A DNA stretch of 64,000 nt from an uncultured delta proteobacterium (GTDB taxonomy: Bacteria; Desulfobacterota; Desulfuromonadia; Geobacterales; DSM-12255), in the NCBI GenBank assembly GCA_963787125.1, contig CAWBBV010000004.1, positions 133,192 to 197,191 of the forward strand, read 5' to 3'. Below are positions 27,001 to 30,000 of this stretch, piece by piece. Positions within the stretch are counted from its first letter, which is position 1; each line of letters starts with the position of its first letter. A program made the position numbers.

Positions 27001-30000
27001 CAAGAGAGCCGCTTTGATTTGATCGGGAATGTCTTTGATTATAAAGTCTGCAACTTGGCTATCGGCTCCGCTCCCGGTCGGTTGGTGTTGGCAGAAAATG
27101 AGCAAGTCAAAAAAAGCAGAACGGAAATTAATGGCGGCCTTAATAAATTCTTGTCGTCTCATCAAGGCGATAGCCTTGTCATGGTTTCTTTGGGACAAGA
27201 GCACTCCGACGAAAAAAGAGCCGATGGCTCCGGTAATAACTCCCCCGAAGCCGGTAATGTAAGGGGTATAAGTCGAGATAGTATTTGCACAACACATAAA
27301 AACTCCTCCTTTTGGCTGGGGCCTATTGGCCTCCCTTTACAATTTCTACTAGGATGCTTCTCTGGCTTATTCGTAGCTATTCGGTGGGGATTTCCTCTTG
27401 TAGAGAGATTTCTTGATTTTTTGCATAACTTATTATTGATCAGTTAGAGCCAGGTTTATAATATTTGAAACTAGCTTCTATTATTGTAAACAAGTTTCTA
27501 ATAGTATAAACCTGACTTGTTTCTATTATTGCAAACTTCTACTCTTTTCGCACTTGTCCAAAGCTTCTATTATCATAAACCTTCTTGCTTTGCGTCCCTC
27601 TTTGAGGTTTCTATTACTATTAACTTTTCCAGCTTCGTCCCAGCAATGCATCCATAACGCACAAACCATAACTGCCGTTCCCGATCCCAAGACCCACCCA
27701 ATCCTCTGGCCTGCTCCTGTAACGCTTTCTCATTGAAGCCGATTCGCAAGGGGACCAATTCACTATCAGGATACTTGGCCGGTGGTGGCGTCCAGTCTGC
27801 TTCGCTGACAATAATTTCTACGGTCTTGAACTGCTTGCGTTTTTCCACATCATAGCGATAGCGGACACAAATCAAAGCGTCGCCATATTGTGCCACCAAC
27901 TTTTTAGTTCCCTTCTGGCCAGGTTTTAATTTAGCCCGTGCTTCCATTTAACCCTCTGTCATATTTATAAGTTTTCGAAATTTATACCACGTTTGTTGCC
28001 TCCATTAAAATGATTTATTTGTTTTTTCCTATTGACACATCTTCAGAAGCTAGCTAGGGTATCTATATGACTACCTGATGCAAAAATACAGCACCATTCA
28101 TCTCTTCTTATGTTAGGAGGACGATCATGACACCTGTGTCGAATATGATTTTTAGTCAATATGAGTTTATCCTCAAAGAACTACATATTCCGGTTGCCCT
28201 GTTTGCTGATTACAAGAAATGGCTGCGCTATTATTTGGATTACTGCGCGAAATATCTGGCGCAGGTTTCCAACAGTGAAAAGGTGCGTCTGTTTTTGGCA
28301 AAGTTACGCGAAAAGAAACAGACCGAGAAGCAGTGCCAGCAGGCAGTTCATGCAATATCACTTTATTTTGAGATGCAACGCCTTGAGATTCCGAAAGATA
28401 ATTCCTTGGAGAAACAAGATCAACAATGTCATGTCGCGCCGCCAGTACAGCAGGTCCAACCGATGTATATTCAGCGAAAATCCCAATATTGCGAGGCGGG
28501 GTATCAGGTAAAATCTTCCTCACCGGAATGGGACGCCTTGCTTGAGGTTATGGCGGGAGAGATAAAGGTCCGCCATTATTCTCGCCGGACATTAAAAACT
28601 TACGCCAACTGGTCAAGACAGTTTCAGCGCTTCCTGAAAAACAAACCGCCAGAGAGTTTATCAACCGCCGATGTGAAAGAGTACCTGACGTTTCTGGCGG
28701 TTAAGTGCAAAGTTGCCGCATCAACCCAGAACCAGGCGTTCAATTCTCTTCTTTTCCTGTATCGCCATGGACTGAAACGGGAATTCGGCCAGTTGCGCGA
28801 CGTGCCGCGGGCAAAGAAGTCACTTTACATCCCGACCGTGCTTTCCAGACCGGAAATAGACGCTATCCTGGCCCAGTTGTCACACCCTTTCAAACTCGTC
28901 GTCTACTTGCTATTCGGCTGTGGGCTTCGGAAATTCGAAGTGATGCAACTGCGGGTGAGGGATTTCAACTTCGACACTGGCAAACTAACAGTGCACGGCA
29001 AAGGCAATAAGGATCGGACCGTGCCGCTGCCGCAATCGATCATGTCTGAAATCAAGGCCCAGTTTGTGGCGGTGGGGAAGCTGCATGACCGTGATTTGGC
29101 AGCCGGGTACGACGGGGTGTTTCTGGATGATGCAGTGGAAAAGAAATATCCCAAAGCGCCGAAGGAGCTTATGCATCAATGGTTCTTTCCGCAACGGTCA
29201 TTGACGCTGGTTGAGGAGACCGGCCAGCGGAGGCGCTACCACCTCCACGCTTCCCAGTTTGAAGAGGCGCTCTATAATGCCGTCCACAAGGCAAAAATTA
29301 CAAAGCGTGTCACTGCGCATACCTTCAGACACTCCTTCGCAACCCATTTGTTGCAGGCAGGCTACGACATCCGCGTCATTCAGACTCTGTTGGGCCACGC
29401 CAGCCTGAAGACAACCATGATTTACACTCATTGTGTGCCGGTAATGACGATCAAGGAGCCGCGTAGTCCGCTGGATCTTTGAGGTGTGGATTTCGATGCA
29501 AACATTAAAGCATTCAAAAAGTTTGGCGCGCCGAAGATTTGTAACTTTACGGTATCATTCAACTGTTATGGTAAAAACCCCACCTTGTCGGCTGTTATTT
29601 CCATCCGCCAGCAGTCTCTCCTGTACTCTGTTAAAAGCAACTTTTGAGTCAACTGCCTTGTACGCAGAAAAAACGGAAACCGTGGATAAAGGCGGATTTA
29701 AAACCCTTATTACTTTTTGCCTGATCCGTTTTGATCCTCTTTTGCCGCCTGTACTGCGTCCGATCATTGCTTTAATTCGGAAATTCCGGTATGCCGGAAT
29801 TCTGTAACTTCAGGATATTATGAAACATAGTGCCCGGATTTTTGCCGGACAAGGTTTTTTGAGACCAGACAAAACTCACCAACATCTTCGCCCGCCAAAA
29901 CGTAAAAAACCGCTCTAGCAGCAGAAGCTGACAAGGAGCGGCTTTTCATCATTCACCAGTGACAACCATCAAACTCTCCAAACATGCGCGGGGTTCACCA

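Follow-up and report, generated by a model that had tools for sequence, protein, structure and literature searches.

A small gene set head-to-head with the integron integrase gene intI in the window (the whole 64,000-nucleotide stretch of delta proteobacterial DNA that was analyzed) very probably encodes a protein that binds the six 18-bp palindromes lying between it and the recombination site attI, with one dimer on each palindrome and with residue 5, and perhaps residues 6 and 12, reading the outer bases. This predicted binding is likely in view of the covariation between protein and palindromes, the contrast between the companion and IntI trees, the joint absence of gene and array, and a dimer model. 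The same four lines, together with cassette junctions at loci without an integrase, support the proposal in the genome-wide survey's note that the module is a platform part of its own, putatively a DNA-binding accessory protein with its sites. The module is apparently a real, undescribed component of the integron platform, for which a role as recombination accessory factor at attI is favored at a rough probability of 0.5. The features of the locus are listed below; the matrix behind the palindrome scores was made without the loci of this genome.

14286..27429, minus strand: cassette array with ~12 attC-like hairpins and a group II intron inside
26720..26780, minus strand: attC of the first cassette, folding as a hairpin whose two cores read AAC and GTT
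26791-27297: ORF of the first cassette
27423..27449, minus strand: attI, with an extra AAC box (27449-27443), L box (27441-27435), 5-bp spacer and R box, crossover G/TT at 27429
27454..27471: palindrome 6, the last unit, 24 bp before the crossover, 17.4 bits
27474..27491: palindrome 5, 19.5 bits
27494..27511: palindrome 4, 26.5 bits
27519..27536: palindrome 3, with which the conserved 25-20-20 block opens, 19.4 bits
27563..27580: palindrome 2, overlapping the stop codon of the companion gene, 20.2 bits
27607..27624: palindrome 1, inside the tail of the companion ORF, 20.6 bits
27573-27947, minus strand: companion gene, 124 aa, head-to-head with intI at a distance of 180 bp, its 3′ tail running into the first two palindromes
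28127..29482, plus strand: integron integrase IntI, 451 aa, TIGR02249 at 348.7 bits (cut-off 265), PF13495 at residues 138-220 and PF00589 at 243-435

By all features testable in sequence the locus is an integron, with an integron integrase, an attI with a G/TT crossover and an array of attC cassettes. The IntI protein bears an N-terminal extension of ~135 aa (residues 1-135, 28127-28540 on the plus strand), and PF13495 gives two stretches in the protein. The extension is present with and without the companion gene and is missing from most distant IntIs. The attC-like sites of the window are by-eye picks from a loose fold scan that gave false sites too; hairpin fold scans proved either too strict or too loose, and evidence for attC cognates was taken solely from the R″-complement test described below. 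A group II intron reverse transcriptase ORF with RVT_1, RVT_N and GIIM matches is located within the cassette array (19931-21445, minus strand), and intron-type ORFs are present in the C23, C16 and C18 regions of the genome as well. A 106-aa ORF (24914-25234, plus strand) is oriented against the other cassette genes. At 24781-24900 (minus strand) an A-rich stretch follows a GTT core; its first ~20 bases recur directly after attI in several relatives, the stretch occupies the first cassette position in L026, L035 and L123, and it is perhaps a widespread cassette that lacks an ORF or bears a promoter.

The attI boxes are named L and R after the attI1 layout. The 7-mer of the R box is the exact complement of R″ in the attC of the first cassette (26780-26720), as expected from IntI-mediated insertion. 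Exact R″ complements, for which chance is estimated at ~1% per locus, confirm the crossover in 25 of the 54 loci with enough flank: 16 of 34 with intI, six of 16 with no intI match in at least 1.4 kb, and three of four with a short flank. Thus, integrase-less copies really took up cassettes, which upholds the earlier observation that the module also heads arrays without an integrase. In the pair L033 and L034 the platform is common to both loci and divergence starts just after the GTT core.

The companion gene agrees with the earlier description of a conserved ~120-aa gene divergent from intI. It is under purifying selection, with a median dN/dS of 0.10 (73 pairs of 16 loci). Its product comprises a basic N-domain (residues 1-54, pI 9.6) with a strand-helix-strand-strand order, in which R29, R31, K41, T42 and E44 are nearly invariant, and a DUF5710-like C-domain (residues 57-113); the AlphaFold model with two small domains and a pLDDT of 86 is as reported before. 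The DUF5710 resemblance of the tail holds as a weak match to PF18974 (residues 67-98), but at 21.8 bits this falls under the cut-off of 26.5. The same weak match recurs in 64 of 140 homologs, some homologs carry a precomputed DUF5710 label, and DUF5710 proteins were the best matches in a viral fold library, none at E ≤ 0.001. Searches with the N-domain gave no Pfam family, those with the companion no NCBIfam match, nothing useful in PHROGs, chance matches only among PDB sequences, and unnamed clusters only in the ESM Atlas above 0.9. Fold searches with the whole model against the PDB, wide PDB and viral libraries returned no relative (best Z 3.8, no E ≤ 0.001), and the C-domain alone (model pLDDT 85) matched unrelated chains at a best Z of 3.8 with no HARP-domain chain among the matches listed. 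The integrase arm-binding domain PF17293 is matched by four of 140 homologs in the same register at E values of 0.007-0.09, and hhalign of the N-domain with 13 integrases, using a shallow template alignment, gave 0.16%, which is not above reversed controls. Two long matches with integrase domains that surfaced in a weak search for companion-IntI fusions look like frameshifted read-throughs. Within the collections searched, nothing marks the companion as a phage or plasmid gene: they yielded no phage records, one partial plasmid match and one partial viral contig. Rfam gave no match in 26000-29600.

The N-domain is predicted to form a two-fold dimer through antiparallel pairing of strand 38-52 about E44, an arrangement compatible with a palindromic site. 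The model scored 0.63 against 0.00 for the best of three controls, a mark attained by 20 of 30 solved homodimers and by one of 23 monomers; at least 97% of contacts were common between runs and pLDDT was at least 78. What such a model would support is binding between the two chains.

As had been noted, the palindromes follow the gene. The six units are imperfect palindromes, and neighboring units together make up a 30-bp inverted repeat. They do not end at the attI-like site as first described; the array stops 24 bp before the crossover. The earlier counts of arrays were partly circular, and a matrix-free test that demands at least three mutually similar 18-bp palindromes within 300 bp, with no shared matrix, removes this circularity. 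Arrays were present downstream of the gene in 73 of 89 loci (110 loci minus 13 duplicates and eight with a short flank), upstream in none of 88, further downstream in one of 73, and in none of the 89 when sequences were shuffled 20 times per locus. The bias is repeated in a distant, mostly metagenomic set of 88 loci, eight of which were dropped and for which the identity threshold was slightly looser, with arrays downstream in 59 of 80 and upstream in none of 80. The position downstream, and not upstream, thus holds. In the pooled data, an array is present at 139 of 179 distinct loci, and fewer than three units occur in the other 40; 123 arrays contain a 20-bp step, and the last three spacings are 24/25/26-20-20 in 91 of these 123. 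Among the 97 arrays that end 20-20, the distance to a GTT is 21-24 bp in 78 and 14 bp in 13, the latter class being about one helical turn shorter than the former. The geometry of the array is therefore constant while the letters of the palindrome vary.

The consensus given by the survey is correct for one type of palindrome but is not the sole type. At least four exist, with outer bases GTTT, GCAT or CCAT, or with a TATATA center, and each stays symmetric; type A units start with GTT, whereas types B and C do not. The letters track the companion and not IntI. For the same 32 loci, the companion tree requires three type changes, the fewest that four states allow, and the IntI tree 12. Motif distance correlates with distance in the companion N-domain at 0.55, with the IntI catalytic domain at −0.05, and with the IntI extension at a Spearman value of 0.27 (26 loci). 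The association is sharpest at residue 5: across 123 loci, A at base 3 accompanies Leu in 62 of 64 cases and other residues in one of 59. With a phi of 0.95, this is the best of 5760 residue-base tests in an unbiased scan, compared with 0.65 for the best other residue among traits with at least six changes and a maximum of 0.73 among 5000 independent traits simulated as a null. G at base 3 occurs exclusively with Lys or Arg (5/5), residues that also occur with T (five loci). On a tree built without residues 1-8 the Leu5 and A3 traits change 11 and 12 times, respectively, and a single clade of Leu5 rows is rejected with a p-AU of 3.9e-8 on a hand-picked 56-row subset. The tree is poorly resolved, and branches with at least 95% support leave two independent pairs, on which a sign test is not significant. 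As codon 5 is farther from the array than the codons from which the tree was built, linkage or hitch-hiking alone would be a poor explanation of the pattern.

The companion family is broad but patchy, with 2013 representatives at 50% identity. Named relatives are mostly Geobacteraceae. Within the order, 86 of 101 genomes gave a match to the gene, but outside it only one of 195 from the phylum did; sets of other phyla centered on an Acidobacteriota and a Chloroflexota record gave 12/251 and 14/251 genomes, respectively, and named loci occur also in Nitrospirota, Rokubacteria/Methylomirabilota, Fibrobacterota and Pseudomonadota. The integrase is divergent less regularly than the "nearly all" of the earlier account. 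Using matches at E < 1e-6, whose identity as IntI was not checked one by one, intI is divergent at 59 of 123 loci, tandem and upstream at 16, downstream at one, without a match within 1.4 kb or more at 33, and not scorable at 14 with a short flank. The order of gene, array and attI is constant irrespective of the direction of intI. Given this varied orientation and absence of intI, the module is tied to attI and not to the intI promoter.

Gene and array also are absent together. The attI site was located in 25 of the top 30 IntI loci of the order, and all 20 with the gene have an array while all five without it have none. These five gene-less integrons belong to the same IntI group and retain cassettes and the same attI core, which makes the module dispensable. 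A quick tree of IntI puts four of the five in a single clade, and the control therefore counts as one or two events. Loci L112, L123, L127, L132 and L136, of the same IntI group and with the same attI core but devoid of both companion and 18-bp array, possess another repeat, ATGTTGGCCA-like and partly inverted, ~130-170 bp before the crossover; loci with this repeat would constitute a second platform type, positioned between intI and attI. At L135 (G053:C49) the companion ends after residue 50, the array is gone and an attI-like core remains, which looks like one deletion that took the C-domain and the array together. Four full-length Chloroflexota companion loci beside intI, counted with the 40 above, have fewer than three units and hence no array. 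The N-domain also lives outside integrons, as 13 loci (L273-L285) in nine Chloroflexota genomes encode proteins of 70-72 aa, in up to three copies per genome, that consist of the N-domain and an acidic tail, with no array and no intI match within ~1.5 kb. These stand-alone proteins are possibly a domesticated regulator.

In the genome assembly, of 30 contigs, there are two intI genes, three companions that are intact, at least seven sites with an array and an attI-like sequence, and three palindrome types. A six-frame profile search returned the four companion copies already reported and only those. The C16 and C18 arrays had been left unscored as divergent: that at C16 can be scored and is of another type, but C18 has a truncated gene and no array. 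Nor are clusters confined to C4, C23 and C12:221257 as the survey had them, since matrices made from relatives located three more that lack the gene. The platforms beyond C4 and C23 are as follows.

C16 cluster: type D, with its own companion gene
C18: truncated companion gene, no array
C5:22845-22927: type D, no gene; spacing 25-20-20, GTT at 14 bp, attC-like sites downstream
C12:31355-31449: type D, no gene; GTT at 24 bp, cognate R″ behind the first ORF, then an attC-like site
C12:159206-159263: type D, no gene; looks decayed
C12:221257-221322: type B, no gene; looks decayed, spacing shifted

Neither intI nor a companion is nearby at any of the four solo sites (C5 and the three on C12), two of which lead into ORFs. 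The stretches behind C16, C5 and C12:221257 yielded no intact cognate attC, and no companion protein matching the type B site is present in the assembly. Beyond the platforms, a site of the locus's own type was detected upstream of the gene in three of 86 loci and in cassette DNA in none of 86, and the 11 best type A sites of this genome all fall within two arrays. Own-type sites being nearly absent upstream and the best type A sites being confined to two arrays, the companion is not a global regulator.

In the favored mechanism, the companion would be a sequence-specific DNA-binding protein of the integron platform whose N-domains pair into the predicted two-fold dimer, with the first strand reading the outer bases of each palindrome. 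Four dimers spaced at 25-20-20 bp, ~two helical turns each, would line up on approximately the same side of the helix. Their distance from the simple site of attI would be fixed, and the site itself would stay uncovered. The resulting nucleoprotein arm may act on IntI at attI, as do DR1/DR2 at attI1 or the accessory sites of tyrosine recombinases, and may favor attI × attC insertion, restrain attI × attI reactions among the many attI copies of the genome, or both. Fixed phasing would, however, suit RNA polymerase at a promoter that overlaps attI equally well. The strongest competing proposal, which is possible though not probable, is that the bound protein controls cassette transcription: the promoter of the companion would serve as Pc, with the dimers acting either as a roadblock or in tuning a promoter whose −10 element overlaps the attI L box. 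The L box does often resemble a −10 hexamer by reading of the sequences. Moreover, in stranded RNA from the cultured relative G015 (locus L016; four runs from two studies) the companion sense RNA starts near the ATG and coverage continues across the array into the cassettes, with intI transcribed the opposite way, and depth dips in or after the array in three of the four runs. The reads of 150 bases resolve neither a single transcript nor the exact start. Yet coverage has no gap, one run is flat over the array, and a consensus promoter scan gave three weak sites against 2.0 ± 1.3 by chance. The 10-bp shift in one clade would carry the last site out of a −35-like position and into the spacer. 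Autoregulation through operators that lie 350 bp past the start of the gene also would be unusual.

A more doubtful suggestion is that the companion is an integron-encoded licensing factor whose simple, evolvable residue-base code marks attI so that one IntI can load cassettes at several dispersed integrase-less platforms. Paralogs with different codes would keep the platforms separate, and some CALINs might then be active capture sites and not ruins. The solo sites may be set beside this proposal: spacing is shifted at the type B site that has no matching protein, and the C5 site, solo and of type D, has retained the 25-20-20 spacing. It is improbable that the bound protein is a guard that protects attI against insertion sequences, introns, silencing proteins or ill-timed cleavage by IntI and lends no help to recombination. 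Group II introns and transposases do strike these arrays heavily and the gene is transcribed in ordinary culture of a relative, but a shield would not need a base-pair-exact distance to the crossover, and the palindromes overlap neither the L nor the R box. Least probable of all, and highly unlikely, is that the palindromes are bound by IntI (for example by its extension) or by a host regulator, or form cruciforms, with the companion merely linked: although the extension is unexplained and shows the weak motif correlation given above, neighboring units pair into an inverted repeat and type A units begin with GTT, the GTT is missing from types B and C, extended IntI occurs without arrays and arrays with IntI devoid of the extension, the motif correlation is with the companion N-domain and not the catalytic domain, three palindrome types in one genome make a single host factor a poor explanation, and the residue-5 rule is hard to explain for a passenger.

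A dedicated protein that the platform itself encodes, together with its phased sites, would add a fourth part to the integron and be a directly testable candidate for an accessory factor of the kind that chromosomal integrases may need. The module would also be a marker for attI and might account for the origin of part of the CALINs. The residue-5/base-3 rule permits a test of specificity with one substitution, and an intact companion that is expressed exists in a relative in culture, for which RNA data are public. Full-text searches of the openly available literature, main texts only and thus without supplementary attI tables, listed no description of the gene or array; both are absent from the accessible parts of several papers (PMC3146285, PMC8946536, PMC2426708, PMC4889954, PMC11233732, PMC3108266). 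The term DUF5710, to whose family the C-domain is weakly alike under the curated cut-off, is used for Acinetobacter Rep_3 fusions in the one paper found to hold it, as far as its accessible text goes (PMC11233732). Deltaproteobacterial LexA recognizes a divergent motif, as stated in the portion available of another (PMC3108266).

The closest known system is the attI1 platform. Integron platforms consist of intI, attI and Pc, and attI1 has the accessory repeats DR1/DR2 (PMC4889954, PMC8946536, in the sections available). According to a part of the latter, DR1/DR2 favor attI1 × attC recombination, and the chromosomal IntIA may depend on accessory proteins, as yet unknown, to insert cassettes at attI (PMC8946536). 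Marine attI sites are mostly without direct repeats in the passages available (PMC3146285), and attI cannot be searched for in most integrons, as stated in the available part of PMC4889954. The present locus shares with the attI1 platform a true IntI, a simple site at attI and cassettes with attC, and both have additional sites on the side of attI away from the cassettes. However, IntI1 binds DR1/DR2, a pair of core-like direct repeats, whereas the units here are 18-bp palindromes, 3-7 or more in number, that covary with a separate gene between intI and attI and not with IntI. The array does not consist of direct GTT-core repeats that follow IntI, and the available sections of the sources on DR1/DR2 name no gene like the companion (PMC4889954, PMC8946536).

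Among other tyrosine recombinase systems, phage lambda employs Xis and IHF with arm sites, and XerCD acts at cer with ArgR and PepA; in both, phased protein sites beside the core can shape the synapse. No sequence or fold match between their accessory proteins and the companion was found. Unlike in those systems, the partner of attI is a folded single strand, and the gene for the factor overlaps its own sites. The integrase-less rows resemble CALINs, which are cassette rows without a neighboring intI, often in genomes that encode IntI elsewhere, and whose origins are ascribed, in the portion of PMC4889954 available, to loss, rearrangement, integration at secondary sites and cassette creation. 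In contrast to CALINs, the integrase-less rows described here keep attI with the array and often the companion gene. With attI and array retained, they look like maintained docking sites.
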